48,055 nt of DNA from Candidatus Omnitrophota bacterium (GCA_040755235.1 JBFMBJ010000001.1:1-48055), one strand, 5' to 3'. Positions 2 through 40,935 are shown, numbered from the stretch's first letter. The notes: generated from the letters alone by a model not told the origin. Made by a program: numbers and translations.

Positions 2-565
2 TATAGGTTTGACGGCAAGAGAATAGTAGTCGGTAGGGTTGAAAACGGCATTCTCAATAAAGGACAATCTATCAAAGCGCTACCCAGTAACCAGAATACA
101 AAAATTAAATCTATAGAGGTGTTTTTGAAAGAAAGCGTCAGAAGCTACCCGGGAGAAAGCATAGGGATTACTACTGAAGACGCCATATTTTTAGAGAGGG
201 GTAATGTAATTTGTGAGCAAGGAAAAGAACCAATTTTGACTGATAATTTCCAGGCCAATGTTTTTTGGATGGCAAAAAACAACTTTGATAAAAACGAGAG
301 AATCACATTAAGGTGCGCGACACAAGAGATTAGTTGTAGGGTAGAAAGGATAGAGGAAAGGATAGATTCTTCATCCCTTGAGGTAATAGAAAAAGATGCA
401 AATGAATTAAGATATCTTGAAGTAGGTAAGGTTATTATAAAGACTAAAAAGCCCATAGCCATAAAGGCTTTTAATGAAATGCAGGAATTGGGCAGGTTTG
501 TATTTGTGCATAATGATAACGTTTGCGCCGGCGGGATTATTACTGGAGTAGAGAGTAGAAAGTAG
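2..565 (+). CDS. cysN: Sulfate adenylyltransferase subunit 1 (CysN-type GTPase), C-terminal part; 5' end lies outside the window
   Basis: The frame is open from nt 2 (YRFDGKRIVVGRVENGILNKGQSIKALPS...). EF-Tu-like domain II/III pattern as in CysN: VFWMAK...LRCATQE...GRFVFV...VCAGGII. The stop TAG 563-565 lies inside the heptad array. Confidence 0.7.
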   Translation, partial: YRFDGKRIVVGRVENGILNKGQSIKALPSNQNTKIKSIEVFLKESVRSYPGESIGITTEDAIFLERGNVICEQGKEPILTDNFQANVFWMAKNNFDKNERITLRCATQEISCRVERIEERIDSSSLEVIEKDANELRYLEVGKVIIKTKKPIAIKAFNEMQELGRFVFVHNDNVCAGGIITGVESRK

Positions 566-576
566 CAAGTAGCGAG
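549..576. repeat. Heptad array TAGAGAG TAGAAAG TAGCAAG TAGCGAG (left flank of 4HB cassette 1)
   Basis: Four consecutive TAGNNAG units. The 7-nt period places TAG in all three + strand frames (549, 556, 563, 570). Confidence 0.9.
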
Positions 577-942
577 ATGGAAAGAAAACCAATAAAAAGC
601 GTTGAAGATTTTGAAGTTTAGCAAAAAGCTGTTGGATTATTCGAAGCTTTTTTAGAAGAAGATTTACCTATATTGAAACAGAATTTTGCTGGGAGGGCTT
701 TAGCGAATAATCAGTTAAGGAGCCTCGATTCTATATGCGCCAATATGGAAGAAGGTTACGAAAGAAAATCAGACAAAGAAATAAAAAATTTCTTTAGAAT
801 ATCTAAGGGCTCAACAGGAGAAGCAAGAGGAAGATATAAAAGATTAAAGAAAATATTACCGGAACAAATAATAAATAAACGCGTAGCTGTTCTAAATGAG
901 ATTAGAGCAATGCTTGAAGCTTTAATTAATAAATGGAAATAA
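577..942 (+). pseudogene. Four-helix-bundle protein (23S rRNA intervening-sequence protein / Avd-like family) with one in-frame TAG
   Basis: ATG 577 gives MERKPIKSVEDFEV, then TAG at 619-621, then QKAVGLFEAF...SICANMEEGYERKS...FFRISKGSTGEA in the same frame. The stop replaces the Tyr of the LEVYQ motif seen in the intact paralogs at 12996 and 14589. The ORF track only shows the TTG-started tail 673-942. Confidence 0.75.
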
Positions 943-944
943 AT

Positions 945-972
945 CTCTCTACTCTCTACTTGCTACTCGCTA
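945..972. repeat. Heptad array CTCTCTA CTCTCTA CTTGCTA CTCGCTA (right flank of 4HB cassette 1)
   Basis: Every unit is the reverse complement of TAGNNAG, so TAG falls in all three - strand frames. It forms a 23/28 imperfect inverted repeat with 549-576. Confidence 0.9.
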
Positions 973-993
973 CTTTTTTAAGAGTTTATACAT

Positions 994-2283: not shown

Positions 2284-4003
2284 GCCGAGAGTCATAGTAA
2301 TCGGATTAGATGGGGCAACATGGACAAATTTAAAACCATGGATGGGACAAGGATTATTACCTAATCTGAAATTCTTAGTAGATAACGGCGTAAATGGCGA
2401 ACTTAAATCAACTATACCTCCGCAATCAGCCCTTGCTTGGTCATCATTTATGACTGGAGTAAATCCAGGTAAGCATGGAATATTTGGCTTTGTTAAACCG
2501 TTCAAAGATAAACGTTACGAAACAGAGATAGTGACTTCTAGTGACATGAAGACAAAAACCATTTTTGAAATACTCTCAGATAATAAAAAGATATCTGGAG
2601 TAATAAACTTACCTATTACTTATCCACCACTTAAAATCAATGGATTTATGGTTAGTTGCGGTCTCACTACGCCGAGCGTAAATTGTAATTTTACCTATCC
2701 AGATGACCTTTTTGAAAAAAATAGGATAGAGAGAAAAGAATATATTCTTAGTTTAAGGTGGAAGAAATATTCTGAAAAACAAAAAGATAAGTTCTTTTCA
2801 GATTTAATTAAATGCGAAGGAAAAAGAAAAGAAGTGAGTTTTAAGCTTATGAATAAATATGACTGGGATTTGTTTGTAGTTGTATTCGGAGGAACCGATT
2901 GGCTTCAACATTTTTGTTGGCATTATATTGATCCTAAACATTCTAAATATAATCAAGTTGAAGCTAATAAATTCCTTCCTACTATAATAAAATATTATAC
3001 AAAAATAGATTCCATTATTGGAGAGTTTATAAGTCTTGTGGATGAAAATACATCTCTATTTATAATTTCTGACCATGGTTTTGGACCGAGGGAGAAAAGG
3101 ATTGATCTTCATAAATTACTTGAGAACGGAGGGTTTTTGCATTATAGGAAAATGTCTCGTCTGTCAGATGCTTTAGAGAAGAAAGTTAATGCAGCAATTA
3201 ATAAGATAAGGGGCACTTTGCATCGCCACTCTTTTCTTTATAGAAAAGGTAAGGTATTTGCTAAAATAATATATCGTAAGATAAAAGCAAAAACATTAAA
3301 AAATGATTTGCCCAAAGAAAATAGTAAGAGGATTCGGCCAGACATAGAAAGTTCTTACCTACGTAAGATAAATTGGCAAAGAACGTTTTTTTACTCTGGG
3401 TACCCAGATGATACTGGCTATATAAATCTTAAAGGGAGGGAACCCGAAGGAATAATAAATTCAAACGAAGAATATCAGCAAGTAAGAGAGAGGGTTATTA
3501 ATCTTATAGATAGTCTATCCAATCCGGAAAACGGGCGTAAATTGAAAGTAAAAATTTATAAAGGGGAGGAGATTTATAAAGGACCTTATGCGCGAAATGG
3601 TTACGATCTATGTTTTGATATAGAAGATGAAACTTACGATTTACGTTGTGCTGCTAATTTGAAAAATATTTTTAATGATATTAAAACAGCAACTGGTAAA
3701 CATACAAGAGATGGTATCATACTTTGCTATGGGAAAAACTTTAAAAAAGAATATTGTATAAAAGGTGCTCAGATATTAGATATAGCCCCAACCATTTTCT
3801 ACCTTCTCGGCGTTCCTCTTCCTGATTATTTTGACGGTAAGGTGTTAAAAGACGCTATTAGTAATGAATATTTAATTTATAACCCGATCGAACAACAAAA
3901 AATATTTAATGAAAATACTCTAACGGAAAGAGATAATAACACTTTAAATGAGGAAGACACAAGTAAAGTAAAAAAACGCTTAGCAGATTTAGGTTACATA
4001 TAA
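2270..4003 (+). CDS. Alkaline-phosphatase superfamily protein, type I phosphodiesterase-like (paralog of 994-2283 with a large insertion)
   Basis: VIGLDGATW, PPQSALAWSSFMTGVNPGKHGIFGF and IISDHGFG motifs. It overlaps the upstream gene by 14 nt. Confidence 0.7.
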   Translation: MGQNKPRVIVIGLDGATWTNLKPWMGQGLLPNLKFLVDNGVNGELKSTIPPQSALAWSSFMTGVNPGKHGIFGFVKPFKDKRYETEIVTSSDMKTKTIFEILSDNKKISGVINLPITYPPLKINGFMVSCGLTTPSVNCNFTYPDDLFEKNRIERKEYILSLRWKKYSEKQKDKFFSDLIKCEGKRKEVSFKLMNKYDWDLFVVVFGGTDWLQHFCWHYIDPKHSKYNQVEANKFLPTIIKYYTKIDSIIGEFISLVDENTSLFIISDHGFGPREKRIDLHKLLENGGFLHYRKMSRLSDALEKKVNAAINKIRGTLHRHSFLYRKGKVFAKIIYRKIKAKTLKNDLPKENSKRIRPDIESSYLRKINWQRTFFYSGYPDDTGYINLKGREPEGIINSNEEYQQVRERVINLIDSLSNPENGRKLKVKIYKGEEIYKGPYARNGYDLCFDIEDETYDLRCAANLKNIFNDIKTATGKHTRDGIILCYGKNFKKEYCIKGAQILDIAPTIFYLLGVPLPDYFDGKVLKDAISNEYLIYNPIEQQKIFNENTLTERDNNTLNEEDTSKVKKRLADLGYI

Positions 4004-4028: not shown

Positions 4029-5231
4029 ATGGAAGAGATAATTGACAAGTTACTTGGATCAAGGCTTAAAAAAACACAGTTTTTATTTCTGCCAGAAGAG
4101 AAATCTAACTTAGATTATGAAAAGGCTCAAGATGAATTCATTGATTATTACAGTAGAGTAGGAGGAGTTTGTTCAATATATAAATATGGAAAAGTTTCTG
4201 TTTGTGGGCTATCAGACATGGATTTTATTGTCGTTTTAGATGACAATTATAGACATAGATATGGAGTCCGATATGATATAAATTATTTTTCTCCATTAAC
4301 TCAATATTTATTGATACATCCACAATTATTTATAAGCAAGAGTCTTATGAAAAATATAGTTTTTTTTGTAGATACTTCAAATTTACAAAAGATATGGGGT
4401 GAAGAAATTATTTTTGAACAACCTACTGAACAAGAATTAAAAGCAATTGCTATCTTATTGCAGATAGATGGATTTATCTTAAGTTTACCTAAATTGGTTT
4501 TAAAACCTTTACTTGAGGAAAAAATAAATTTGAGAGCTATGATTGCAAATATAAATAGGATTAAATATGCTATTGGTAGATTAGAAAGGATCACTAATAA
4601 AAAAAATGAGATTTATAGTATTTTTGTAGAAGATTTTAGTTTATTTAGGAATTCATGGCTTAGAAACAGTAAAGATGAAAATTTAAAGTTGTTAATTATT
4701 TATCTAAAAAAGGCAATAAAAATCATTTATTCATTGATTAAGGACTTCAGCGAGGCTTTAGATAAAGAAAATTACTATAGTAGCGTATTTAAGAATCCTA
4801 GCAGACTTAATATCGGTTTTAAAGTTGCGGAAGATGTCACTTATTTTGAAAAAGACTGGGATGCATCTGGCAGTTTTAATAGTACAATAAATTTATTTTT
4901 TCAATCAAGAAGATATATGCAATTTTTACCCCTAAATTTTTCTTATCACTTATTTCAGTATACGAAAATTAATAATAAGTTCGCAAATTATATAAAGGAA
5001 AGACTATTCTTAAATCAAGATTTAGATATTAAAAGTAATAATCAATTAGAGATTAAAAAGGCAGAACTTATAAATAAGCATATTGAATTTTTAGAGAATG
5101 GCAGAATTGATGGAAATGCAATTTTCTGCCATCTGGGTTATCGTAGCAATATCAAAAGATTTCCTGGTGAATATAGATACAGCAATTATAAACGCTGGAT
5201 TGAGAGAAGATTAAATTTCATAAAGAGTTAA
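4029..5231 (+). CDS. Hypothetical protein with a possible Pol-beta-type nucleotidyltransferase motif
   Basis: A long ORF inside the operon. KYGKVSVCGLSDMDFIVVLDD resembles the G[SG]...DxD nucleotidyltransferase signature. No other family was recognised. Confidence 0.35.
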   Translation: MEEIIDKLLGSRLKKTQFLFLPEEKSNLDYEKAQDEFIDYYSRVGGVCSIYKYGKVSVCGLSDMDFIVVLDDNYRHRYGVRYDINYFSPLTQYLLIHPQLFISKSLMKNIVFFVDTSNLQKIWGEEIIFEQPTEQELKAIAILLQIDGFILSLPKLVLKPLLEEKINLRAMIANINRIKYAIGRLERITNKKNEIYSIFVEDFSLFRNSWLRNSKDENLKLLIIYLKKAIKIIYSLIKDFSEALDKENYYSSVFKNPSRLNIGFKVAEDVTYFEKDWDASGSFNSTINLFFQSRRYMQFLPLNFSYHLFQYTKINNKFANYIKERLFLNQDLDIKSNNQLEIKKAELINKHIEFLENGRIDGNAIFCHLGYRSNIKRFPGEYRYSNYKRWIERRLNFIKS

Positions 5232-6421: not shown

Positions 6422-7396
6422 ATGAAAACATTTAATTACCAAATAGAAGTTGATTGGCATATTAACGATTTTTGTAACTTCAATTGTATCTATTGCTTTG
6501 ATGCGCATGAAAAAAATGATGCCTTTATTGGCTTAGGAGATATGCCTAAAATCGTAGATGCCTTTAATAACTCGGGGCATGTTTGGTTAATCGGGATGAC
6601 AGGAGGTGAGCCTTTTTTTGTTCCTCATTTTATTGATTTATGCCTTAAACTTACAAAAAACCACTTCATAAGTATTAATACAAATTTAAGCCACAAGGAC
6701 ATTATCCTATTTGCAGAATATACAAATCCTGAAAAAGTTACTTCTGTCCATTGTAGCTTGCATATTCAGGAAAGAGAAAGACTTAATCTCGTTACAGATT
6801 TTATAAATAAATTTAAATTATTACAAAAAAAAGGGTTTAATGTTTTTGTTTCCTATTTGCTTTATCCACATTTGATAAAGAGATTCATAAAGGATTATGA
6901 ATGTTTTAAATCGGAAGGGATTATTCTTATGCCGAAAGTCTTCCGAGGAAACTGTGCAAGGTTTGAATTTATTGACTCAAAGATATTTAGTAAAATTAGG
7001 AATTTTTTCGGTAGTACTTATCCACAAGCCTATTCGTCAAAACAAAGAGAGATAATTAACCGTTTTATGGATAGGAGCATAGATGATTGGAAGACTGCCG
7101 TAAAGGCTGAGAGTGATTTACAAAAAGAAAGACTATCCGATATATGGTTCGACCGTTTTTTTGTTAATGGCCCCCCAAATTTTAAAGGAAAATTTTGTGA
7201 AGCTGGCAAAAAATTTGTGGTTATGAATACTATGGGTGATATATACCGATGCCACAGTCAGAAGGATTATCTTGGCAATATTTTTATTGAGCAGATAAAA
7301 CTATATGACAAAATAAAGCAGTGTATAGTTAGTAAATGTGGATGTCCAGCCTTCGGGTATAAGTATATTTTAGAAAAAAATAACAGTTATGCATAA
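6422..7396 (+). CDS. Radical SAM protein with a Cys-rich (SPASM-like) C-terminus
   Basis: CNFNCIYC is a CxxxCxxC cluster near the N-terminus. GGEPF motif present. C-terminal CEAGKK...YRCHS...CIVSKCGCP. Confidence 0.75.
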   Translation: MKTFNYQIEVDWHINDFCNFNCIYCFDAHEKNDAFIGLGDMPKIVDAFNNSGHVWLIGMTGGEPFFVPHFIDLCLKLTKNHFISINTNLSHKDIILFAEYTNPEKVTSVHCSLHIQERERLNLVTDFINKFKLLQKKGFNVFVSYLLYPHLIKRFIKDYECFKSEGIILMPKVFRGNCARFEFIDSKIFSKIRNFFGSTYPQAYSSKQREIINRFMDRSIDDWKTAVKAESDLQKERLSDIWFDRFFVNGPPNFKGKFCEAGKKFVVMNTMGDIYRCHSQKDYLGNIFIEQIKLYDKIKQCIVSKCGCPAFGYKYILEKNNSYA

Positions 7397-10482: not shown

Positions 10483-12909
10483 ATGACTAAGATTTGTTTC
10501 ATAATTGATAATTTAAAGATAGCGGGTGCGCAGAGGCATCTTTTAAGATTGACCAAAGGATTAACCAACAGGGGGTATTCTCCAGAGGTTATTTCCCTTG
10601 GCATTAATGATGAAAATTTAATTAAAGAGATAAAGGCGCCATTGGCTACATTTAAAATGGATTGTATCTGGAGGATGAGTTTTTGGCTGAATTTTATACA
10701 GTTAATTAAATTTATTTCTAAGCAAAGGCCGGTAATAGTCCATACTTACCTTAATACTTCTAATGTCTTTGGGGTTTTATCTGCTAAAATTGCTAAGGTT
10801 CCCATTATTTTCTCCTCGCGCAGAGATTTAGGCCAATTCCGCTCGAGGTTAATTGGCTTGTTAGAGCGTTTTACTGCACATCTTAGCGATAAAGTTGTTT
10901 GTGTTTCCAATGCTGTTCAAAATCATGTTATTGATTCAGAGCGAATTAGTAGAGAGAAAACGGCTGTTATATATAATGGAGTAGACGTAGATAGTTTGCG
11001 AGTTAACGAGTTGACGAGTTGGCGAGTTAGAAAAGAAATCGGAATAGGTGAAAATGAATTAGCAGTTGGAATGATAGCGACGATGGACAGGGAAGAAAAG
11101 GGGCATAAGGAATTCATTGAAGCAGCGGGTTTGGTTGTAAAAGAAATTCCGAACGTCAAATTTCTGCTTATCGGCGACGGTTTTCTTCGTCAAAAGTTAG
11201 AAAACGCAATACGTGATACCTGCCTTGCCGGCAGGCAGGCGCATGACGCAATACGAGGCAAAGTTTTATTTCTTGGTAAACGTAACGGCATACCAGAATT
11301 ATTATCCACAATGGATGTGTCGGTGAACGCTTCATATTCAGAAGGAATGTCCAATACAATTTTAGAGTCTATGGCAGCTGGAGTGCCAGTAGTAGCTACA
11401 GCAATAGATGGCAATCTCGAAACTGTCAAAAGCTTACAGTTTGATTACAGTGATTTAGATAAAGATTACAGTGATAAAAATTGTGCAACTGGGATACTCG
11501 TGCCGCCAAAAGAGCCACAAGCTATGGCAAAAGCTATTATAAAGATACTTAAAGATAAGGAATTAGCTGTGAAGATGGGTGAAAACGCGAGGCGATTAGT
11601 TTACGAAAAATTCTCTCTTGAAACAATGGTGAATAATTACGCTAAACTTTATCAAGATTTATCCGCGCCAATCCGCGTCCAAAACAATCCGCGCCAATCC
11701 GCGTCCACAGTGGGTTATATCGTTTCTCTTTTTCCCTGTTGGTCAGAAACCTTTATCTTAAATGAAATAATAGAGTTAAAGAGAAAAGGTATTGAAGTGA
11801 CTATATTCTCTATAAGAAAAGATTTGGAAGCATTTATTCAAGAGAAGTCAAAACTGCTTATAAAAAATACAATATATCCAGAAAAGCCAGGTGTATTTAG
11901 GTCATTTGTATTTTGGGCTGTAAGAAAACCAGTGACATTGCTTTCAATTTTCTGGTTGGTTGTCAGTAAAAGATATTCAAGCTCAAAAGTTCTACTTAAG
12001 AACATCTGGTGTATTTTTGTCGGTTGCTACTTTGCTACTATTGTAAAAAAAGAGAATATCAAAAACCTCCATGCACATTTTGCAACCTACCCAACTTTAG
12101 TAGCTTTGGTCATATCAAGATTGACTAAGATTAGTTATACTTTTACCAATCATGCTCATGACATATTCTTAGAAAAAGCTCTTTTAAAAGAAAAATCCAG
12201 AGATGCAAAAGCCATAGTTGCTATCTCAAATTATAATAAGCAATATCTGGATAATATTTGTCAAAATGGAGTTATAGATAAGACGCACGTCATTCATTGC
12301 GGCTTAGATTTAGCTGAATTTGTTAATTTAAACGTCAAGCATAAAGATAATACGATTTTGAGTATCGGCAGATTAACCAAAATGAAGGGTTTTGAATATC
12401 TTATTAAAGCTTGCAATCAAATTAAAAATCGCCTGCCTGTCCAATGCCGCATAATTGGCGATGGTCCTTTGAATGATGAATTGGAAAGGTTAATTATTAA
12501 TTTAGGAGTAAGGAGTAGCGTAAAATTAAAAGGGGTAACGGACAACAGTGAGATTAAGCAATTATTACAGGAAAGTGCTGTATTTATCATGTCCAGCGTC
12601 TGGGATGAGCAGGATGGCCAAGATGGCATCCCGATCGTATTAATGGAGGCAATGGCAGCAGGCGTGCCGGTGATAGGTTCAAATATTTCAGGCATACCCG
12701 AATTGATCCAGGATGGTCAGACAGGGCTGTTGGTTGAGCCAGGCAATGTTGTAGATTTGGCAAAGAAGATTGAGCTTTTGTTGAACGATAAAGATTTGCA
12801 GGCTCGCTTAGCTAAAGCAGGCAGGCGTAAGGTTGAAGAGGAATTTGATATTCATAAGAGTGTAGAGAAGCTAATTGAGGTATTTAACTTATCGAGCTGT
12901 CATACATAG
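10483..12909 (+). CDS. Two GT4 glycosyltransferase modules in one ORF (tandem fusion through a repeat linker)
   Basis: Module 1 has SEGMSNTILESMAAGVPVVATAIDGNLE. Module 2 starts like a complete WcaL-type GT (VGYIVSLFPCWSETFILNEIIELKRKGIEV) and has DGIPIVLMEAMAAGVPVIGSNISGIPELIQDGQTGLLV. The junction is the 21-nt direct repeat at 11661-11707. An in-frame GTG at 11710 could be an internal start. Confidence 0.8.
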   Translation: MTKICFIIDNLKIAGAQRHLLRLTKGLTNRGYSPEVISLGINDENLIKEIKAPLATFKMDCIWRMSFWLNFIQLIKFISKQRPVIVHTYLNTSNVFGVLSAKIAKVPIIFSSRRDLGQFRSRLIGLLERFTAHLSDKVVCVSNAVQNHVIDSERISREKTAVIYNGVDVDSLRVNELTSWRVRKEIGIGENELAVGMIATMDREEKGHKEFIEAAGLVVKEIPNVKFLLIGDGFLRQKLENAIRDTCLAGRQAHDAIRGKVLFLGKRNGIPELLSTMDVSVNASYSEGMSNTILESMAAGVPVVATAIDGNLETVKSLQFDYSDLDKDYSDKNCATGILVPPKEPQAMAKAIIKILKDKELAVKMGENARRLVYEKFSLETMVNNYAKLYQDLSAPIRVQNNPRQSASTVGYIVSLFPCWSETFILNEIIELKRKGIEVTIFSIRKDLEAFIQEKSKLLIKNTIYPEKPGVFRSFVFWAVRKPVTLLSIFWLVVSKRYSSSKVLLKNIWCIFVGCYFATIVKKENIKNLHAHFATYPTLVALVISRLTKISYTFTNHAHDIFLEKALLKEKSRDAKAIVAISNYNKQYLDNICQNGVIDKTHVIHCGLDLAEFVNLNVKHKDNTILSIGRLTKMKGFEYLIKACNQIKNRLPVQCRIIGDGPLNDELERLIINLGVRSSVKLKGVTDNSEIKQLLQESAVFIMSSVWDEQDGQDGIPIVLMEAMAAGVPVIGSNISGIPELIQDGQTGLLVEPGNVVDLAKKIELLLNDKDLQARLAKAGRRKVEEEFDIHKSVEKLIEVFNLSSCHT
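10993..11030. repeat. In-frame octamer array (NNCGAGTT x4), copy a
   Basis: agtttgcgagttaacgagttgacgagttggcgagttag encodes SLRVNELTSWRVR. It is 35/38 identical to 13945-13982 in a paralogous GT4, whereas the flanking coding DNA is much less similar. Confidence 0.85.
11204..11255. repeat. In-frame ACGCAATACG pair (42-nt spacing) around a GC-rich hairpin
   Basis: acgcaatacg occurs at 11204-11213 and 11246-11255. The central cctgcc-ttgcc-ggcagg lies at 11219-11235. The segment encodes AIRDTCLAGRQAHDAIRG in a GT4 linker that is normally shorter. Confidence 0.8.
11443..11475. repeat. In-frame GATTACAGTGAT direct repeat, 21-nt period
   Basis: Perfect 12-mers at 11443-11454 and 11464-11475 encode DYSD twice, inside the GT4 E...G loop. 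The reverse complement atcactgtaatc occurs at 18878-18889. Confidence 0.85.
11661..11707. repeat. Perfect 21-nt direct repeat (atccgcgccaatccgcgtcca x2, 5-nt spacer) at the GT4-GT4 junction
   Basis: Units at 11661-11681 and 11687-11707. Each unit is itself two ATCCGCGNCA decamers. The region is translated as SAPIRVQNNPRQSAS. Confidence 0.9.
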
Positions 12910-12991
12910 TCATAGGTAGTCATAAAATGGTCATACAATTGTAAAAGATACTATAAGTATATTGTAATAAATAGTCATACATTGTAAAAAG
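12899..12991. repeat. GTCATA array (left flank of 4HB cassette 2)
   Basis: GTCATA at 12899, 12909, 12919, 12930 (10-11 nt phasing) and 12974. gtcatacaattgtaaaag and gtcatacattgtaaaaag are near duplicates. Stops occur in all three + frames, and the stop of the upstream GT (12907) lies inside the array. Confidence 0.85.
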
Positions 12992-12995
12992 GAGA

Positions 12996-13385
12996 ATGGA
13001 ATTGGCGGGAGATATAAGAGATTTTGATGATTTGGAAGTATATCAGCTGGCTTTAGAATTGGCAGATTGGATATATGATTTAACAAGCAATTTTCCTAGT
13101 GAAGAAAGGTTCAATGTTACCTCGCAGATAAGGGATGCTGCAACTTCAATTGGCGCAAATATAGCCGAAGGCTATGGTCGGTTTCACTATAAAGAAAACA
13201 TTCAATTTTGTAGACAAGCAAGAGGCTCTTTATCTGAGACAAAGCACTTTATGATTTTTAGCAATAAACGCAAGTATATTTCTGATGATATTTACAAAGA
13301 ATTTTTACAAAAATACAAGCAATTACAAATAAAAATTAACAATTATATTAATTCAATTGGTAAGAAGAATAGTGACGATGTATGA
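12996..13385 (+). CDS. Four-helix-bundle protein (23S rRNA IVS protein / Avd-like family)
   Basis: DFDDLEVYQLALEL..., RDAATSIGANIAEGYGRFHYKENIQFCRQARGSLSETKH. SD aaaggag lies 5 nt upstream. Confidence 0.85.
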   Translation: MELAGDIRDFDDLEVYQLALELADWIYDLTSNFPSEERFNVTSQIRDAATSIGANIAEGYGRFHYKENIQFCRQARGSLSETKHFMIFSNKRKYISDDIYKEFLQKYKQLQIKINNYINSIGKKNSDDV

Positions 13386-13417
13386 CAACATTTGACAATG
13401 GTATGACAATATATGAC
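13381..13417. repeat. TATGAC array (right flank of 4HB cassette 2; inverse of the GTCATA array)
   Basis: TATGAC at 13381, 13402 and 13412, plus TTTGAC at 13391 (10-11 nt phasing). The 4HB stop TGA 13383-13385 lies in the first unit. Confidence 0.85.
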
Positions 13418-14548
13418 GATTCACGTGCTTCGGCGCGAAAAATTAACATCCTGCACGTGATTTGGTCCTTAGAAAAAGGCGGCGCGGAAAGATTCTTGGT
13501 TTTGCTGGTTAAAAATTTTGACCAAAGCCGTTTCAATTCCATTGTTTGTTGCCTTAATTGGAAAGGCGAATGGGCAAGCGAACTTGAGGAAAAAGGAATC
13601 AAGGTTATTGCCTTAAATAAAAAAGGTAAGTTCGACATCTGTGTAATCTATAGAATAATCTGTGTAATCAGACAATATAAAATTGATATTGTAAATACTC
13701 ATCTTTGGGCAGCAGATTGCTTAGGAAGGGTTGCGGCTATTTTTGGGGGAGTGCCCATAATTATAAGCACAGTCCAAAATGTAGATATCTGGAAGAAGTT
13801 TTGGCATAAAATCATAGATAAGATGTTGGCGAACCGAACAACCAAATTTATTGCAGTTTCAAAAGCAGTTAAGGAGTTTTTGATTAATACAGAAAAGATT
13901 CCTGAAGAAAAAATTGAGATAATACCGAATGCGATTGATGCAGAAAGTTTGCGAGTTAACGAGTTGGCGGGTTTGCGAGTTAGAGAAGATTTAGGGATTA
14001 AAAACGAAGAGATAGTGCTGACTGTAATTGGAAGATTGGTTGAACAAAAGGGCCATAAATATTTGTTTGAAGCCTTGAGTATGCTGGATGGCAGGTATAG
14101 AGTGAAATTACTGGTGGTTGGTGATGGGCCGCTTAGAGAAAGTTTACAGTTTAAAGTTAACAGTTTACAGTTAGAGAATAAAATTCAATTCTTAGGGCAG
14201 AGAAGAGACATGGCAGAAATATTTAATGCGAGTGATGGTGTGATTTTGCCTTCGCTTTATGAGGGGTTGCCTGTAAGCATTTTAGAGGCGATGGCTGTTG
14301 GTAAGCCTGTAATCGCAACAGATGTTGGCGGCACTTGCGAACTTGTTAAAGATGGAGAAACTGGATTTTTGGCACAAGCAAAAAACAGCAAAAGCTTAGC
14401 ATCTAATATAGAAAAACTTTTAACTTCACCAGATAAAGGAAAAAAAATGGGAGAGAGAGGCAAGGAATTGGTTAATAATGCCTTTTCTATACAGGCTATA
14501 GTTAAAAAAACAGCAGATTTATATCTCTCACTTCTCGGTAACGGTTAG
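13382..14548 (+). CDS. Family 4 glycosyltransferase
   Basis: INILHVIWSLEKGGAE..., YEGLPVSILEAMAVGKPVIATDVGGTCELVKDGETGFL. The first ~15 codons (MTTFDNGMTIYDD) are a translation of the TATGAC array, so the true start is probably downstream (ATG 13403 or later). Confidence 0.8.
   Translation: MTTFDNGMTIYDDSRASARKINILHVIWSLEKGGAERFLVLLVKNFDQSRFNSIVCCLNWKGEWASELEEKGIKVIALNKKGKFDICVIYRIICVIRQYKIDIVNTHLWAADCLGRVAAIFGGVPIIISTVQNVDIWKKFWHKIIDKMLANRTTKFIAVSKAVKEFLINTEKIPEEKIEIIPNAIDAESLRVNELAGLRVREDLGIKNEEIVLTVIGRLVEQKGHKYLFEALSMLDGRYRVKLLVVGDGPLRESLQFKVNSLQLENKIQFLGQRRDMAEIFNASDGVILPSLYEGLPVSILEAMAVGKPVIATDVGGTCELVKDGETGFLAQAKNSKSLASNIEKLLTSPDKGKKMGERGKELVNNAFSIQAIVKKTADLYLSLLGNG
13637..13669. repeat. 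In-frame ATCTGTGTAATC direct repeat, 21-nt period
   Basis: Perfect 12-mers at 13637-13648 and 13658-13669 encode ICVIYRIICVI. Confidence 0.85.
13945..13982. repeat. In-frame octamer array (NNCGAGTT-type), copy b
   Basis: agtttgcgagttaacgagttggcgggtttgcgagttag encodes SLRVNELAGLRVR. It is 35/38 identical to 10993-11030. Confidence 0.85.
14141..14172. repeat. In-frame AGTTTACAGTT direct repeat, 21-nt period
   Basis: Units at 14141-14151 and 14162-14172 encode SLQFKVNSLQL. They share the TTACAG core with 11433-11475. Confidence 0.8.
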
Positions 14549-14581
14549 GGTAACGAAGCCAGTATCGGTAAGGGTAATGGC
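14535..14581. repeat. Flank A of 4HB cassette 3 (GGTAACG/GGTAAGG-type low-complexity array)
   Basis: tcggtaacggttagggtaacgaagccagtatcggtaagggtaatggc. It contains the GT stop TAG 14546-14548 and stops in all + frames. An inverted copy lies at 18716-18763. Confidence 0.85.
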
Positions 14582-14588
14582 AAAGTAA

Positions 14589-14984
14589 ATGGAAAATAAA
14601 AAACGAATAACAAGTTTTAAAGATTTAGAAGTATACCAGAATAGCTACAGAGCTATGCTAAGTGTAATGAAAGAGATTGTTCCGAAATTACCCGAGAGAG
14701 AAAAATACGACTTGGTAGATCAATTGAGTAGAGCCTGTAAGTCAATACCCAGATTGATAGCAGAAGGTTATGCTAAGCGGCACCAAAAGGCAGGTTTCCA
14801 GAAATATATTGATGATGCGATGAGCGAGTCTAATGAAATGGTTGTTAGTTTAAGCGAGTCGCGAGATATATACTTTAATTATATAGATGTGAAACAGTGC
14901 GATGAATTAATTGATATTTATGATAAGACAGGCAGGCAGCTTTATAAATTAGCTGAAAGTTGGACAAATTTTAAAAGACGATAG
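14589..14984 (+). CDS. Four-helix-bundle protein (23S rRNA IVS protein / Avd-like family)
   Basis: SFKDLEVYQNSYRA..., LSRACKSIPRLIAEGYAKRHQKAGFQKYIDDAMSESNE. Confidence 0.85.
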   Translation: MENKKRITSFKDLEVYQNSYRAMLSVMKEIVPKLPEREKYDLVDQLSRACKSIPRLIAEGYAKRHQKAGFQKYIDDAMSESNEMVVSLSESRDIYFNYIDVKQCDELIDIYDKTGRQLYKLAESWTNFKRR

Positions 14985-15040
14985 ACGTAACCCAAGGACG
15001 AAACGGGCATCCTAACCTTAACCTAAAAACGTTGCCATAA
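14983..15040. repeat. Flank B of 4HB cassette 3
   Basis: agacgtaacccaaggacgaaacgggcatcctaaccttaacctaaaaacgttgccataa. Its reverse complement matches 18579-18636 at 54/58 positions. Confidence 0.9.
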
Positions 15041-15057
15041 CGTATAGTGGTATTCAC

Positions 15058-16311: not shown

Positions 16312-16326
16312 TCCCGCCCTTTTGGC
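16312..16326. repeat. Left arm of a perfect 15-bp inverted repeat around the GIY-YIG gene
   Basis: tcccgcccttttggc is the exact reverse complement of 16601-16615. Confidence 0.95.
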
Positions 16327-16337
16327 TGGAGGTAGGT

Positions 16338-16595
16338 ATGCATTATATTTATTTGTTAAAAAGCGAGAAAGACAACTATATTTATATTGGCAATACCAAT
16401 GATTTAGAAAGAAGATTGGTTGAGCATAATAGCGCTAACAATACAGCTACTAAGAAGCATAGACCTTTTAAATTAGTTTATTACGAAGCTTATTTAGATA
16501 AGAGGGATGCTTTAGATAGAGAAAATAAATTAAAACATCACGGAAGCGTTATTGGACATCTGAAGAAACGATTAAAATATAGTTTATCTTGTTAA
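16338..16595 (+). CDS. Small stand-alone GIY-YIG (URI-domain) nuclease family protein
   Basis: HYIYLLKSEKDNYIYIGNTNDLERRLVEHNS. SD ggagg at 16328-16332. The ORF-track start (TTG 16299) only adds a translation of the left IR arm. Confidence 0.85.
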   Translation: MHYIYLLKSEKDNYIYIGNTNDLERRLVEHNSANNTATKKHRPFKLVYYEAYLDKRDALDRENKLKHHGSVIGHLKKRLKYSLSC

Positions 16596-16600
16596 ATTTC

Positions 16601-16615
16601 GCCAAAAGGGCGGGA
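16601..16615. repeat. Right arm of the perfect 15-bp inverted repeat around the GIY-YIG gene
   Basis: gccaaaagggcggga, 5 nt after the TAA stop. Confidence 0.95.
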
Positions 16616-19598: not shown

Positions 19599-19646
19599 GT
19601 CATAAGTAGTCATAAGGTAGTCATACAATGGTCATAAATTGTCATA
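19599..19646. repeat. GTCATA array (left flank of the toxin-antitoxin cassette)
   Basis: GTCATA at 19599, 19609, 19620, 19631 and 19641 (10-11 nt phasing). It is visibly alignable with 12909-12945. Confidence 0.9.
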
Positions 19647-19711
19647 CGATTGTATGAGGCGAGCGTTACATAAATTCAGACTCGATATCTTAAAAATCCT
19701 TACTTTCGTCC

Positions 19712-19740
19712 TTGACGATTTCCTTACTTTGTGCTATACT
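19712..19740 (+). promoter_or_regulatory. Sigma-70-type promoter of the AbrB/toxin pair
   Basis: TTGACG (19712-19717), 17-nt spacer, TATACT (19735-19740). tccttacttt is directly repeated at 19697 and 19721 and is a possible operator. Confidence 0.6.
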
Positions 19741-19761
19741 TGTTACTGGAGGTGAACAAAG

Positions 19762-20022
19762 ATGACAATTACAATGACAGCAAAGAATCAAATAACCATA
19801 CCTAAGAAGATCACAAATGCTTTGGGCTTAGGGAAGGGGTCTATGTTCGAGGTAGAGGTCTCTAGAGATGGGATAGAGCTTATTCCTCTGGAGACAAAAG
19901 AAAGGCAGTTCACAGATGAGGAATACGTGAAATTAGAGACCCTTGCAGCCAAAGAAAAGGGGAAAGAAAAACATGTAACAAAAAGGTTCATCGATAATTT
20001 AAAAAAGGGAAAATCTAATTAA
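19762..20022 (+). CDS. AbrB/MazE/SpoVT-family antitoxin
   Basis: MTAKNQITIPKKITNALGLGKGSMFEVEV (swapped-hairpin motif). It overlaps the downstream gene by 1 nt (TAATG). Confidence 0.75.
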   Translation: MTITMTAKNQITIPKKITNALGLGKGSMFEVEVSRDGIELIPLETKERQFTDEEYVKLETLAAKEKGKEKHVTKRFIDNLKKGKSN

Positions 20023-20330
20023 TGTCTTTACGCCTTTATTACAGGCCTTCTTTTAAAAGAAGCATCAAGCGTTTAGGATATGAACAGAAGAAAACAGTAG
20101 GACTGATAATTGAATCTTTAGCTGTTTATTATTCTCGTGAGTGTAATCTGCTAGAGGCACAAAAGATAGCACCACGATTTTTTTATAAACAACTAAGAAA
20201 GCCCTATTATGAAGCCGGTATCGAAGGAACCATCCGAGTGATTATAAGACGAGAGGGTGAAAATTGTATTGTAGTATTAGCCGGGAATCATGACCAAATA
20301 AAACAATTTCTGGCCAGCGTACAGTGTTGA
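20022..20330 (+). CDS. Putative type II toxin (RelE/ParE-like small basic protein)
   Basis: Size, position after the AbrB antitoxin and translational coupling support the call. YRPSFKRSIKRLGYEQKKTVGLIIESL resembles RelE/ParE N-termini. The family assignment is tentative. Confidence 0.5.
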   Translation: MSLRLYYRPSFKRSIKRLGYEQKKTVGLIIESLAVYYSRECNLLEAQKIAPRFFYKQLRKPYYEAGIEGTIRVIIRREGENCIVVLAGNHDQIKQFLASVQC

Positions 20331-20373
20331 AGAAGTACTGCCAAAGGATAAAATAACCCCTCAGAAATCTCCC

Positions 20374-20412
20374 CATGACAATCTTGTGACAACAATATGA
20401 CAACCTTATGAC
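20374..20412. repeat. (C/T)ATGAC array (right flank of the toxin-antitoxin cassette)
   Basis: catgaca at 20374, tgtgac at 20385, tatgac at 20396 and 20407 (11-nt phasing). It is alignable with 13381-13417. Confidence 0.85.
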
Positions 20413-20421
20413 AATATATCG

Positions 20422-21537: not shown

Positions 21538-21571
21538 GAACGAGGGACGAGAGGCGATGGACGAAAGGCGG
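21526..21571. repeat. ACGAG-type octamer-like array straddling the GT2 stop
   Basis: aaacgagttaggaacgagggacgagaggcgatggacgaaaggcgg. It shares the aacgagtt unit with 10993-11030 and 13945-13982. Confidence 0.7.
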
Positions 21572-21760
21572 AAAACAAAATGCCTGACTATCTTACTAAA
21601 ATAGAGTATACTCCAATTTAGTAATACCAATTTGGAGTTTAATCTGGATAAAAAATCTGAAAAGAATACTTGATATAAAGCTTCCCCGGCGACAATCAGC
21701 GTTTTTATAGGGAGATAGAAAGAGAATCGACATCATATAAACTTTAATGGCAAAATTTTC

Positions 21761-21794
21761 TTGACAAAATAATCCCTTATGGTAATTTATTACC
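21761..21794 (+). promoter_or_regulatory. Possible sigma-70 promoter with an overlapping palindrome upstream of the MNT/HEPN pair
   Basis: TTGACA (21761-21766), 16-nt spacer, TAATTT. GGTAAT-TT-ATTACC palindrome at 21781-21794. Confidence 0.35.
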
Positions 21795-21811
21795 ATAAAC
21801 ATGGTGAAAAC

Positions 21812-22357
21812 ATGATATCTTTACGTTCAAAAGTGGCAATAAAATTACTGGATTATTATTTCCTTAATCCTGATGCTAAACATTATATCAATGAATTGGC
21901 GAGGACTTTAGACCTTGATCCTAAAAATACCGAAACTAAGCTTAAGGAATTCGAAAAAAAAGGCATTTTTAAAAGTGAATTCCGCGGTAAAGAAAGGTAT
22001 TTTTTCTTAGCAAAGGATAGCCCCGTTTTAGAGCATTACCGCCAGATTTTCCTGAAGACTTATGGTATAGAGAAGAGGCTTAAAGATACGCTACGAGGTA
22101 TTAAGGGACTTAAGGAGGCATATCTATTTGGCTCATACGCAACCAATAAGATGGATTTTTCAAGCGATATTGATATCTTGGCCATCGGTTCGCACTCTGT
22201 TTTGGAATTACAGAGGATGATTGTTAAGTTACAGAAGGATACAGACAGAGAAGTCAATGTAATGAATTTAAGCCTCAAGGAATTTGAGGTAAAGAAAAAA
22301 AAGAAAGACCCTTTTATAACCAATGTCTTTAAAACCAAGACTATAAGGATCGTATGA
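21812..22357 (+). CDS. Nucleotidyltransferase (MNT-type) with an N-terminal winged-helix domain
   Basis: HYINELARTL... wHTH-like N-terminus. AYLFGSYATNKMDFSSDIDILAIG is the G[SG]-x(n)-DxD NTase motif. The start was moved to ATG 21812. Confidence 0.75.
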   Translation: MISLRSKVAIKLLDYYFLNPDAKHYINELARTLDLDPKNTETKLKEFEKKGIFKSEFRGKERYFFLAKDSPVLEHYRQIFLKTYGIEKRLKDTLRGIKGLKEAYLFGSYATNKMDFSSDIDILAIGSHSVLELQRMIVKLQKDTDREVNVMNLSLKEFEVKKKKKDPFITNVFKTKTIRIV

Positions 22358-22751
22358 TTAATTTTGAAAGTCAATACTTTCAAAAATTGGCATTTCATTT
22401 AAAGAAAAACAAATTGAACAATTCTTAAAGTCTGCCTTACATGACATTAAGATTGCCGAAACATCTGATATTCCGGATGTTATTTTTAAATTCAGTTATG
22501 ATGCTTTGTTAAAATTAGGCATTGCGTTAATTGCAAAGAAGGGTTATAGAGTGAGAAGCGCAACAGGCCATCATATTAAGATATTAGAGAAACTTAGTCA
22601 GATACTTAAAGAAGAAGATATTATTGTTCTTGGCAATAAGATGCGTCAGGAACGCAATATTAATCTTTATGATGGCGGCTTTGTAGTAGGGGAAAAAGAC
22701 ATCCGGGAGTATCTAATTTTTGTAAAAAGTATTTTCAAAAAAGGTAATTGA
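22354..22751 (+). CDS. HEPN-domain protein, reading frame broken near the 5' end (-1 shift at an A5 run)
   Basis: ATG 22354 overlaps the MNT stop (ATGA) and reads MINFESQYFQK. The HEPN-like sequence IGISFKEKQIEQFLKSALHDIKIAE...GHHIKILEKL continues in the -1 frame from 22386. That frame has no ATG/GTG/TTG before 22506. Confidence 0.55.
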
Positions 22752-22753: not shown

Positions 22754-23566
22754 ATGAATAAAGCTAACATTGGTAAATTAGTAGCATTAGCTGGATTAAC
22801 TGCGCTTGCCTACATTCCTACCTTTGCCTGGATGATTGGCAGATGGACTGCCAAAGATACATATTACAGCCATGGTTTTTTAGTGCCATTAATTAGTATT
22901 TTTTTAATTTGGCAAAAGAGGCAAGATTTAAAGAAACTAAAGATTAAGCCTTCTAATCTTGGCTGGGTATTTTTTGGCTCTGGTATATTAATTCATGCGA
23001 TAAGCGCGTTATGGAGAGTGTATTTCTCGTCGGGATTTTCTTTAATTATAGTTCTAATCGGGCTGGTTTTATTATTTTTAGGCAAGGAATTTTTAAAAGA
23101 AACTTTATTCGCAATACTTTTCTTCGCCTTTATGATTCCTTTACCTCTGGTTGCTATTGCCAACATAAGTTTTAAACTAAAAATTTTTGCCGCTAAAATT
23201 TCAACCGTTATCATTAATAAATTAGGCGTTCCGGCAATAAGAGACGGCAGTGTGATAAAAACAATGCATTCTTATTTGGTAGTAGAGGACCCTTGCTCTG
23301 GGATAAGAAGCTTAATTGCTCTTATTGCCCTGGGTGCATTGATGGCATATTTTAGTAACATTTCCAAGCTTAAAAAGACAATTCTTTTTATATCCTCAAT
23401 TCCTATCGCAATCGCAACAAACGTAATCAGGATAGTTACTTTGTCGTTAGTAAGTGAAATGTATGGAGCGAAATTAGCAACCGGTACATTTCATAATATA
23501 ATGGGTGTTTTGGTTTTTGTCTTTGCATTTATTGGTCTGGCCTTGATAGCCAAGATCCTGGAGTAG
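22754..23566 (+). CDS. Exosortase (EpsH/Xrt family transpeptidase)
   Basis: YYSHGFLVPLISIFLIW, catalytic-Cys motif EDPCSGIRSL, NVIRIVTL, and multiple TM helices. Confidence 0.9.
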   Translation: MNKANIGKLVALAGLTALAYIPTFAWMIGRWTAKDTYYSHGFLVPLISIFLIWQKRQDLKKLKIKPSNLGWVFFGSGILIHAISALWRVYFSSGFSLIIVLIGLVLLFLGKEFLKETLFAILFFAFMIPLPLVAIANISFKLKIFAAKISTVIINKLGVPAIRDGSVIKTMHSYLVVEDPCSGIRSLIALIALGALMAYFSNISKLKKTILFISSIPIAIATNVIRIVTLSLVSEMYGAKLATGTFHNIMGVLVFVFAFIGLALIAKILE

Positions 23567-23569
23567 TAG

Positions 23570-23630
23570 CATATCGTGTATAGCGTATTGAGTATTGCGC
23601 AATACGCACGACGCACAACGCAATACGAAA
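23570..23630. repeat. Cargo-less palindromic element of the CGTATTG / CAATACG family
   Basis: The left half is cgtattgagtattgcg and the right half is cgcaatacgcacgacgcacaacgcaatacg. The central perfect 14-bp palindrome gtattgcgcaatac lies at 23592-23605. Confidence 0.85.
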
Positions 23631-27391: not shown

Positions 27392-27396
27392 TTGAA

Positions 27397-27435
27397 CACG
27401 AATTCTCACGAATTACACACTAATTTTCACGAATT
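27397..27435. repeat. CACGAATT x3 intergenic motif array
   Basis: cacgaatt at 27397, 27407 and 27428 (spacings of 10 and 21 nt). Confidence 0.8.
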
Positions 27436-27487
27436 ATCAGCGAGTTTAAAAAGCCACGGAGATTTCAAAAGAAGGAGGTGAAAAAGA

Positions 27488-33039: not shown

Positions 33040-34053
33040 ATGCAAAATAATCCTAAGCCACGGAAGTCAGTGCCGGCTTTAAAAGATTTAATTAACGTTG
33101 AGGCCTGGCAGGATATTCAGGATAACTTTTCTTTAGTAACCGGAATTGATATTCGATTAATAGACTCAAAAGGCAATCCTCTTATCCGCCGTAGTAATCA
33201 TTCCTCCGCATTATGTTCTGATTATTCCCCAATAGCACAAACAGTAAAAGAGAAGGTCTGTGTAGATTGCCTGCCTACGTTCTTAGGAGGCAACGGCGTA
33301 GTAGACCGTAATTTGAGTTTTTCCTGTATTCCTGGTTTAGACAATTTTATCGTTCCTTTAAGCATAGAGAATGAGGTGCTTGGCTATATCCTAATGGGGC
33401 CTGTTATTTTAGTTATGCGCAAGACCAAAGAACAATATTCTCAGATTGCGGAATCACTAAATGTTGATTTAGAAGAACTCTGGAGTGCTATTTTAGAGTT
33501 AAAAGTGATTTCTTTTCATGGCGCGCAATCAATGCTGGAATTGGTTAAAGATGTAGGTGAATACATTGTAAATTTGGCTTATAGAGATTACATGAAAGAA
33601 GAAGGGGTTAGTTTTAAGCTTAGCACCGTAAAATTACATAAGATATTAGAACTATTGTTAGATGTGGCATTTGAAATAACCGGCGCAGATATTGGCTCAG
33701 TGATGTTAGTTGATAAAAAATCTGATGAACTTTCTATAAAAGCTAGCCGAGGAATTTCAGATGATATCGTTGCGAGGACCCGGGTTAAGCTGGGTAGCAG
33801 GATTTCCGGTTTAGCAGCAAGGGAAGGGGAGGCATTTTTAATCGATAAAGCCTTAAAAGATAACCGAATTAGTCGCTATCTTGAGAGGCCGTCTTTAAAT
33901 TCTTCGATGGTCGTTCCGCTTAAATTAAAAGACACAGTAGTGGGAGTTATGAATTTGGCAATTCTTTCTACCTCACCTAACAAGTTCAGCCAGGACGGCT
34001 TAGAATTGATGCGTAAACTTGCGGACTTGGCAACTGTAGCAATTCCCACCTAA
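33040..34053 (+). CDS. PocR-type sensory domain plus GAF domain protein (no output domain)
   Basis: WQDIQDNFSLVTGIDIRLIDSKGNPL is PocR-like. The C-terminal part is GAF-like (ADIGSVMLVD...SIKASRGI...MVVPLKLKDTVVGVMNL). Confidence 0.6.
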   Translation: MQNNPKPRKSVPALKDLINVEAWQDIQDNFSLVTGIDIRLIDSKGNPLIRRSNHSSALCSDYSPIAQTVKEKVCVDCLPTFLGGNGVVDRNLSFSCIPGLDNFIVPLSIENEVLGYILMGPVILVMRKTKEQYSQIAESLNVDLEELWSAILELKVISFHGAQSMLELVKDVGEYIVNLAYRDYMKEEGVSFKLSTVKLHKILELLLDVAFEITGADIGSVMLVDKKSDELSIKASRGISDDIVARTRVKLGSRISGLAAREGEAFLIDKALKDNRISRYLERPSLNSSMVVPLKLKDTVVGVMNLAILSTSPNKFSQDGLELMRKLADLATVAIPT

Positions 34054-35429: not shown

Positions 35430-35493
35430 AAGTGATTAAATTATAACACAAAAACTTAGTCCTGCAACGAAATTAAAATTAATGCATTTCTTA

Positions 35494-35522
35494 TTGACAG
35501 AATTTCTGTTTAAATATAAAAT
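35494..35522 (+). promoter_or_regulatory. Sigma-70-type promoter candidate
   Basis: TTGACA (35494-35499), 17-nt spacer, TAAAAT (35517-35522). Confidence 0.5.
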
Positions 35523-35551
35523 ATAATTATGAGTAAGCACTCAAAATAAAT

Positions 35552-38154: not shown

Positions 38155-38157
38155 TAA

Positions 38158-39201: not shown

Positions 39202-39207
39202 CGTTAT

Positions 39208-40914: not shown

Positions 40915-40935
40915 TTTGTGATACCCTAACTAATA

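Follow-up and report, generated by a model that had tools for sequence, protein, structure and literature searches.

The intervening sequences of 23S rRNA genes, as in Leptospira and Coxiella burnetii, carry an open reading frame (ORF) of the PF05635 ("S23p") family of four-helix bundle (4HB) proteins, which is bracketed by terminal inverted repeats, lies in sense orientation inside the host transcription unit and is sporadically present or absent (PMC4990558). The function and origin of these intervening sequences are unclear, and they have long been suspected of being mobile or selfish (PMC4990558). A relative of PF05635, the Avd protein of diversity-generating retroelements (DGRs), forms a pentameric barrel and specifically binds a non-coding RNA site, Sp, adjoining its own gene (PMC6182149). 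Here we report the analysis of a 48,055-nucleotide (nt) stretch of DNA from Candidatus Omnitrophota bacterium (GCA_040755235.1, JBFMBJ010000001.1:1-48055), hereafter the window, which is one entire contig of a metagenome-assembled genome. The plus-strand half of the window is an exosortase/PEP-CTERM exopolysaccharide operon; our ORF scans covered plus-strand ORFs, the minus-strand half of the window being 34050-47864. Within this operon a PF05635 gene, 4HB-A, lies between two inverted arrays of a short motif, and we interpret the region 12898-13420 (cassette A) as a small cassette, present in a single complete copy, that has inserted within the operon.

The nearest known system is the PF05635-bearing 23S rRNA intervening sequence. 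Cassette A differs from it in being located in a protein-coding operon with glycosyltransferase flanks, and not in helix 9, 25 or 45 of 23S rRNA, and in having arms built from short-motif arrays whose spacers are non-complementary, whereas the intervening sequence has a 28-bp near-perfect stem. Unlike those of the intervening sequences, the arms of cassette A also provide the host genes with stop and start codons. The likeness to Avd lies in the homologous four-helix bundle and in the specific non-coding site next to the gene; here the site would be a repeated motif that flanks the gene at either end. Avd models (Pfam bAvd, NCBIfam Avd) matched 4HB-A weakly, and membership of a DGR was rejected, as there was no reverse transcriptase among the ORFs scanned and no template/variable repeat, and NF033474 scored 25.6 bits against a cutoff of 80. 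In a literature search we came across no account of PF05635 cassettes that end in tandem arrays and lie in protein-coding operons.

A PF05635 cassette bounded by phased arrays

The initial annotation of the window had placed GTCATA hexamers to the left of 4HB-A, and TATGAC or TTTGAC hexamers to its right, at a spacing of 10-11 nt, and these coordinates were exact (Table 1; on the right, the reverse complement TATGAC is at 13381, 13402 and 13412, and TTTGAC is at 13391). The spacing in the arrays of cassette A was 10-11 nt. GTCATA was found 36 times in the window compared with 17.6 +/- 3.8 times in shuffled sequences, and a count of 36 was reached in 0 of 100 shuffles. At steps of 10-11 nt, the GTCA/TGAC cores of the window formed four chains with four or more cores each (12899-12933, 13373-13417, 19599-19644 and 20376-20412). 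By comparison, 300 composition-preserving shuffles produced no such chain, and chains of at least three cores averaged 0.01 per shuffle, such that the phased arrays are present far beyond chance. The four chains bracket two cassettes, one containing the 4HB gene (12996-13385) and the other, cassette B, a toxin-antitoxin pair (19762-20330). The array pair of cassette B (19599-20414, GTCATA/TGACAA) was absent from the initial annotation.

Table 1. Coordinates of the array-ended cassettes of the window and of the host genes that flank cassette A.
Feature	Position	Strand	Description
Upstream host gene	10483..12909	+	Two-domain GT4 glycosyltransferase
Cassette A, upstream arm	12898..12946	+	GTCATA x4 (12899, 12909, 12919, 12930), then CAATTGTAAAAG
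Cassette A, inner part of upstream arm	12947..12995	+	Two decayed units, one intact GTCATA (12974), a second CATTGTAAAAAG, Shine-Dalgarno AGGAG of the 4HB gene
Cassette A, 4HB-A gene	12996..13385	+	PF05635 / TIGR02436 four-helix bundle, 129 aa
Cassette A, downstream arm	13373..13420	+	Five TGAC cores (13373, 13383, 13393, 13404, 13414)
Downstream host gene	13382..14548	+	GT4 glycosyltransferase, starting at the ATG of the first TATGAC unit
Cassette B, upstream arm	19599..19658	+	GTCATA x5 (19599, 19609, 19620, 19631, 19641), then apex palindrome GTCATACGATTGTATGAG
Cassette B, cargo	19762..20330	+	AbrB/MazE-type antitoxin (19762-20022); RelE-like toxin (20022-20330), 102 aa
Cassette B, downstream arm	20374..20414	+	CATGAC, TGTGAC, TATGAC, TATGAC; 11-nt period
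Cassette C	14536..15045	+	Second PF05635 gene (14589-14984); GGTAAC/GGTTAG-type repeats left, CCTAAC/CTTAAC right
Cassette D	546..975	+	Third PF05635 gene (577-942); inverted heptamer arrays RAGTAGM (546-576 / 945-975)

As had been claimed in the initial annotation, the arrays contain the stop codons of both the upstream glycosyltransferase (TAG, 12907-12909) and 4HB-A (TGA, 13383-13385), and also the start codon of the downstream glycosyltransferase (ATG, 13382). The last 3-4 codons and the stop codon of the upstream gene are supplied by the array, the stop codon lying between its units 1 and 2, and the stop codon of 4HB-A falls in the first downstream TATGAC unit. The start of the downstream ORF was also said to translate the array, and its first 12 codons do so; in all, the array and its border encode an N-terminal extension of about 18 residues in this protein. 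The only start codons open to the downstream gene are the array ATGs at 13382 and 13403, and the alternation of 10- and 11-nt steps, a superperiod of 21 nt, leaves one reading frame open through the downstream arm. Since the downstream glycosyltransferase has no other start codon, the presence of host stop and start codons in the arrays is functionally relevant.

The product of 4HB-A is a member of PF05635 (E = 4e-35; 120.7 bits, cutoff 33.8), also matched TIGR02436 (112.4 bits, cutoff 24) and has as its closest solved structure 2GSC, which contains five chains. An exact-sequence search with 4HB-A gave no match. The family is large and widespread, with 1,248 clusters at E <= 1e-10 when 4HB-A was the query. 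Cassette A sits in sense orientation within its gene junction, and a scan of 12700-13600 revealed no plus-strand sigma-70-type promoter upstream of 4HB-A and no intrinsic terminator. No Rfam family matched bases 1-24000 at E <= 1. The best pair of segments from the two arms was 28 nt long and 75% complementary.

Conservation of the arrays and of their layout

Homologues of 4HB-A with 62-91% identity were obtained from other metagenomes, and all of those examined (L001, L002, L003-L010, L011, L012-L014 and L015) carry the same inverted, phased arrays. These loci span at least five genomic contexts, including the junctions between a glycosyltransferase and a GT4 gene (L001), between a BcsQ-like gene and a gene of no known type (L002) and between Wzy and GT4 (L003-L010), and positions upstream of an epimerase (L011) or a GT2 gene (L012, L014), with L013 and L015 as further loci. 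The bases of the decayed units at 12947-12995 in the window align with intact units in L001. The core of the unit drifts jointly on both arms, being GTCATA/TATGAC in the window and GTCAAG/CTTGAC in L012-L014.

The logo of units from this GTCATA clade was informative only at T(-2), the GTCA anchor, T(+1) and A(+2), with the spacers carrying almost nothing, and the conserved core is the 8-nt T-W-GTCA-T-A. Position -1 of the logo is A in upstream arms and T or C in the reverse-complemented downstream arms, a systematic non-complementarity that would produce an A·A or A·G clash in a stem. Similarly, GTCATA units stand opposite TTTGAC units and GTCAAA units opposite TATGAC units, and compensation is absent. 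The arm-to-arm mismatches of 43 PF05635 cassettes comprised 41 G·U, 53 A·C and 145 other mismatches, with no bias toward wobble pairs, and the whole of cassette A folded no better than its shuffles (z = -1.05). Since the spacers and core variants are non-complementary and the mismatches lack a G·U bias, we conclude that the arms are conserved as arrays of a recognition motif and not as a base-paired stem. The arms were 84% identical between the window and L001, compared with 71% at the third codon positions of the 4HB gene (p = 0.009), and they are under purifying selection, being more conserved than synonymous sites. The initial annotation had viewed the arrays as binding motifs presented on one face of the DNA helix, beside an imperfect RNA stem; the motif part of that view is upheld by the retention of the core between near-uninformative spacers, whereas the helical-face part is not.

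For a broader comparison, the flanking sequences of 78 PF05635 loci were scanned with Tandem Repeats Finder (TRF); the counts are approximate, as some loci are duplicates of one another. Matching tandem arrays in inverted orientation were present on both sides of the gene at 45 of the 78 loci, and an array was present on one side at 21 more. The period among the 45 matched loci was 7 nt in 20, 8 nt in 21 and 10-11 nt in four, these four being the GTCATA-clade loci that the scan detected. In L031, L039, L064 and L077 the GTCAT core has a period of 7 nt instead (GTCATTG/CAATGAC). Because the same core is also spaced at 7 nt, helical phasing is not the conserved property, and it is confined to the GTCATA clade. 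Presentation on one face of the helix thus fails as a general principle, and this is further evident from 41 of the 45 matched cassettes having 7- or 8-nt units. For periods of 7, 8, 10 and 11 nt, the median number of copies per array was 4.1, 4.4, 3.9 and 3.8, respectively, and the length of the array scaled with the period (29, 35, 39 and 40 nt). Each distinct 4HB was accompanied by its own repeat unit, including the three in the window and the two in a syntenic operon from another genome (L217). In addition, 45 of 47 PF05635 genes were co-oriented with both neighbors, with median gaps of 82 and 84 nt, and the 4HB was the sole gene regularly enclosed by such arrays.

The reading of these features that we consider best placed, while holding it tentatively, is that the arms act in cis as sites for an oligomeric protein, for which the 4HB of the cassette itself is the simplest candidate. 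Such a protein would read the motifs of an arm unit by unit. The relatives Avd and probably 2GSC are pentamers, and a pentameric reader would fit the approximately 4-5 units per arm at any unit length. Binding would mark both ends of the cassette, and might either control or insulate expression of the cassette within the host transcript or help to maintain or move it. The 4HB is the most economical candidate for the reader because it is regularly enclosed by arrays, because the unit is specific to the lineage, and because Avd and 2GSC are fivefold.

The main rival to this proposal operates at the level of RNA, and, although we consider it unlikely, it is the alternative that survives best. In this model the two arms form a stem within the polycistronic transcript, which is cleaved there by the RNase III of the host, and the 4HB mRNA is thereby released or stabilized and separated from the host message, with the repeat structure an incidental product of slippage or of register-tolerant pairing. 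There is a direct precedent, as terminal inverted repeats enclose the PF05635 ORFs of 23S rRNA intervening sequences and form a stem that RNase III cuts (PMC4990558). The model is also consistent with the cassettes being promoter-less, sense-oriented and operon-embedded (45 of 47), with the arms of the 7-8-nt families being near-perfect inverted repeats of 30-45 nt, and with arm constructs folding better than constructs with fully shuffled arms (z = -3 to -9). Likewise, cassettes with a GIY-YIG nuclease gene at one junction in two genomes have wholly different, yet perfect, inverted repeats. The model accounts for sense orientation and operon embedding, but not for the pattern of conservation in the GTCATA clade, in which the spacers, position -1 and the core variants depart from complementarity as described above and neither the mismatch classes nor the fold of the whole cassette bear the mark of a selected stem. 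Furthermore, it is the number of units that is constant over the different unit sizes, and not the length of the stem, and copies of the arrays without a gene occur in both orientations relative to transcription.

Insertion polymorphism, cassette B and cargo-less copies

Three syntenic operons were retrieved, L215, L216 (on the same contig as L002) and L217. The first two are cassette-free at all junctions; in both, the glycosyltransferase and GT4 genes overlap (ATGCGxGTTAA), as do the deacetylase and GT2 genes (ATGA). Because two syntenic relatives have clean, overlapping junctions at these positions, cassettes A and B are insertions, and the arrays are the outermost parts of the inserted cassettes.

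The third operon, L217, has at 6780-7215 a different 4HB gene (35% identity to 4HB-A) with 7-nt GTCGTCA/AGCTGAT arrays, in the same junction between glycosyltransferase and GT4 genes that holds cassette A. The window (12889-13437) and L217 (6780-7215) also have the codons xAT TCA CxT in common in the N-terminal extension of the downstream glycosyltransferase. The shared junction and codons hint at replacement of one cassette by another at a fixed site. At its deacetylase–GT2 junction, L217 has a cargo-less inverted array (13066-13157; AATGTCAC x4, a loop, then GGTGAC x3, with an 8-nt period); in the window this junction holds cassette B, with its toxin-antitoxin pair, and in L215 and L216 it is just the ATGA overlap. 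With regard to the other PF05635 genes of the window, the GT4–Wzy junction that holds cassette C has no gene in L215, L216 or L217, and the gene of cassette D may be a pseudogene, as an in-frame TAG replaces, at codon 15, a Trp that is conserved in the family.

The toxin-antitoxin module of cassette B has its own promoter/operator at approximately 19685-19750, and the downstream arm of this cassette stops 8 nt short of the start codon of the GT2 gene at 20422. In three other Omnitrophota genomes, homologues of the toxin retain this promoter/operator and lack the arrays, and the possibility that the module travels with the arrays was rejected on these grounds. Based on these array-free homologues, and on the upstream arm retaining an apex palindrome (Table 1), the module seems to have landed inside a pre-existing array element.

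Cargo-less copies, in which the left arm abuts the right arm, were identified in Omnitrophota (L101, L107), Bacteroidia (L167, L095) and Bacteroidota (L122), and a further copy (L003:7535-7640) lies in the same operon as the 4HB cassette of L003. They are located between co-directional genes, such as pyrH–frr and plsC–rpsA, and also among pilus genes. In the scan of GTDB from which relevant loci were drawn, made with one genome per species and three phased GTCATA units, about 10 of 120 loci were relevant and most were chance matches or unrelated 11-nt tandem repeats.

Between some array units there are GC-rich mini-hairpins (e.g., TAGCCCCTGCGGGGCT and GCTCGCGAAGCGAGC), several of which give a unit-to-unit distance of 22 nt (L012 1725-1790, L014 1140-1260, L104 5500-5600, L114 1820-1950, L011 1130-1175 and L095 3490-3530). 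Separately, on one 3.4-Mb contig of Cloacimonadaceae, an 11-nt array of four to five copies of GGGTGTCATAT is present in opposite orientations at two places 400 kb apart (L130 1300-1360 and L136 1670-1730), with similar flanks, and these arrays may be the ends of another repeated element.

The insertion data bring to the fore a second rival, namely that the arrays are the ends of a non-autonomous transposon, either a miniature inverted-repeat transposable element (MITE) or a mobile insertion cassette, and constitute subterminal sites for a transposase or recombinase encoded elsewhere, with the 4HB and toxin-antitoxin genes as passengers. Several features would suit such an element: the arrays are inverted and terminal, with two slightly different ends, the cargo varies between a 4HB, a toxin-antitoxin pair and none, the toxin-antitoxin cargo is not tied to the arrays, given its array-free homologues elsewhere, and syntenic loci are polymorphic for presence. 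Moreover, the borders of cassette B (GATAA left and GATGA right, compared with AGATGA at the clean junction) are a possible, imperfectly matched 5-bp target-site duplication. MITEs, REP/BIME (repetitive extragenic palindrome/bacterial interspersed mosaic element) sequences, Correia elements and mobile insertion cassettes are likewise small palindromes between co-directional genes that sometimes have passengers, and the cargo-less arrays resemble them. The cassettes have the terminal inverted repeats of a MITE, but these consist of phased subrepeats, and neither a burst of near-identical copies, the copies being old and divergent, nor a cognate transposase or recombinase was found among the window ORFs scanned or near the related loci examined. 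The evidence for target-site duplication is weak, the bias toward sense orientation is strong, and the possession of its own repeat unit by each 4HB lineage would call for as many unlinked transposases. On balance we regard this explanation as distinctly unlikely.

Two other element types are worth comparing. The foldback (FB) transposons of Drosophila have long terminal inverted repeats made of short tandem subrepeats in variable number, and some contain an internal gene while many do not. These eukaryotic elements far exceed the cassettes in size and depend on a transposase of another kind, and the analogy would be one of architecture only. Integron cassettes are also small and promoter-less, often have toxin-antitoxin or unknown genes, and are inserted in sense orientation and expressed by read-through. 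However, they have a single imperfect palindrome (attC) at the 3' end and are stacked beside an integrase and attI, whereas two half-sites bracket each gene here; an integron origin was rejected because the cassettes are scattered at separate operon junctions and the ORFs scanned included no integrase.

Possible readers of the arrays, neighboring insertions and wider meaning

The proposal that the arms are read by the cassette's own 4HB has to be set against a number of observations that count against it. No PF05635 protein is known to bind a specific sequence. The 4HB had been presumed to be basic in the initial annotation, and this does not hold for 4HB-A, which has an isoelectric point (pI) of 5.4 and is acidic overall, although its homologues have values of 8.6-9.1. 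A binder of single-stranded RNA could read only one of the two arms, and a binder of B-DNA fits the 10-11-nt clade but misfits the 7-8-nt majority. The co-variation of 4HB clade and repeat unit is equally expected from co-inheritance of the gene and its flanks, and the modal copy number of about four is close to the detection floor of TRF. Because the same arrays surround a toxin-antitoxin pair or no gene, the 4HB would have to act in trans at those copies, and a cognate 4HB was present in the same contig as non-4HB copies only in the window and in L003. Some contribution of pairing is possible, as minimal arm-loop-arm constructs compared with core-fixed shuffles gave z = -0.6 to -3.5; this test is not clean for spacer complementarity because only GTCA was held fixed and not the full 8-nt core. 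Lastly, there was no clear target-site duplication at cassette A and no clean one overall, and no recent identical copies were found among the loci compared, so that the case for mobility rests on comparisons of presence and absence.

We also considered whether the arrays might have no function, being microsatellite-like debris generated by slippage at insertion scars. Unit numbers do differ in close relatives, the upstream arm having 4+1 units in the window and 3+5 in L001. This explanation is nevertheless very improbable, as the core persists from phylum to phylum despite drift of the spacers, the arms exceed synonymous sites in conservation and the matched inverted layout recurs at 45 of the 78 loci.

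A further alternative is that the arrays are operators for a host response regulator of the OmpR/PhoB type. The E. coli Pho box is CTGTCATAWAWCTGTCAY, with a period of 11 bp close to that of the arrays; its core, TGTCAT, is almost identical to the core here, and the first unit of cassette A is exactly CTGTCATA. Regulators of this kind bind head-to-tail on 10-11-bp direct repeats and would here control the neighboring genes. Pho boxes and other OmpR/PhoB sites, plasmid iterons and ParR-parC arrays are all short direct repeats with a 10-11-bp period that are bound by a cooperative, oligomerizing protein. In contrast, the arrays here are inverted pairs that end a cassette, enclose a specific gene family in many phyla and have sister arrays of the same architecture with unrelated cores and 7-8-nt periods, and they have no replication, partition or pho context. 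They have repeats of about 11 bp with a TGTCA-type core, but do not replace a -35 element upstream of phosphate genes. Pho-type neighbors were limited to the cargo-less copy L122, which follows a PstS-like gene, and one pattern match beside phoU in Streptomyces (L195); other cargo-less copies lie at pyrH–frr and plsC–rpsA and among pilus genes, no pho genes were found among the window ORFs scanned, and we give little credence to this operator hypothesis, even less than to the absence of function. In L195 (Streptomyces rugosispiralis), three copies of GTCATACGG and phased TGAC cores are present on either side of the phoU-like gene (3113-3145 and 4110-4165); these are presumably genuine PHO boxes, with a core and period similar to those of the arrays studied. 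The initial annotation had also called the arrays iteron-type, which is unsupported in the replication sense; plasmid iterons were rejected because there is no rep gene in the plus-strand half, which is an exosortase/exopolysaccharide operon, and because the arrays are the inverted ends of insertions. An invertible-DNA switch, in which the inverted arrays would be recombination sites and flipping of the cassette would modulate expression of the polysaccharide operon, has the geometry of known invertons (30-50-bp inverted repeats around about 0.5 kb) and a fitting surface-polysaccharide locus, but is equally hard to credit, given that 45 of 47 cassettes are in sense orientation, that the asymmetry between TAG-type and TTG-type arms is fixed relative to the gene, and that no invertase is nearby.

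Other insertions and repeats were observed in the operon. Between the Wzy and beta-helix genes of the window (16312-16615) there is a small GIY-YIG nuclease gene with a perfect 15-bp inverted repeat (TCCCGCCCTTTTGGC / GCCAAAAGGGCGGGA), and at the same junction in L217 (9650-9930) a gene lies within an unrelated, perfect 16-bp inverted repeat, such that complementarity is kept while the sequence differs. An MNT-type nucleotidyltransferase gene (21779-22357) and a HEPN-like frame (~22400-22750) occupy 21541-22751, between the GT2 and exosortase genes; this junction is tight in relatives, and a 14-nt tandem repeat (21541-21570) precedes the insert. Intergenic repeats for which no partner arrays were found are present at 27396-27439 (CACGAATT x4, at 10-11-nt steps) and at 23561-23627 (GAGTATAGCGTATC / CGCAATA).

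Returning to the proposal that the cassette's 4HB reads the arrays, a much broader version of it can be entertained, although as a whole we find it doubtful. In this version, PF05635 proteins would recognize the ends of minimal selfish cassettes that make up a very large, unrecognized class, each cassette having a single small gene, an inverted array of about 4-5 motif copies at either end and one pentamer per array. Needing no canonical transposase, such cassettes would have colonized operon junctions as well as rRNA genes in different bacterial phyla, and the cargo-less palindromes that they leave behind could capture other small genes, such as the toxin-antitoxin pair. The classical 23S rRNA intervening sequences would then be the special case that was noticed first.

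Genome annotation is affected as well, since host genes take stop and start codons from the arrays and thus have chimeric ends at such junctions. For the Omnitrophota, the window and its relatives indicate that the junctions of surface-polysaccharide operons have been colonized repeatedly, by 4HB, toxin-antitoxin, GIY-YIG and MNT/HEPN genes, with the host reading frames left intact. For the family, the layout of a gene with flanking arrays would provide the first concrete cis partner for PF05635 proteins and makes a 30-year-old question experimentally approachable.

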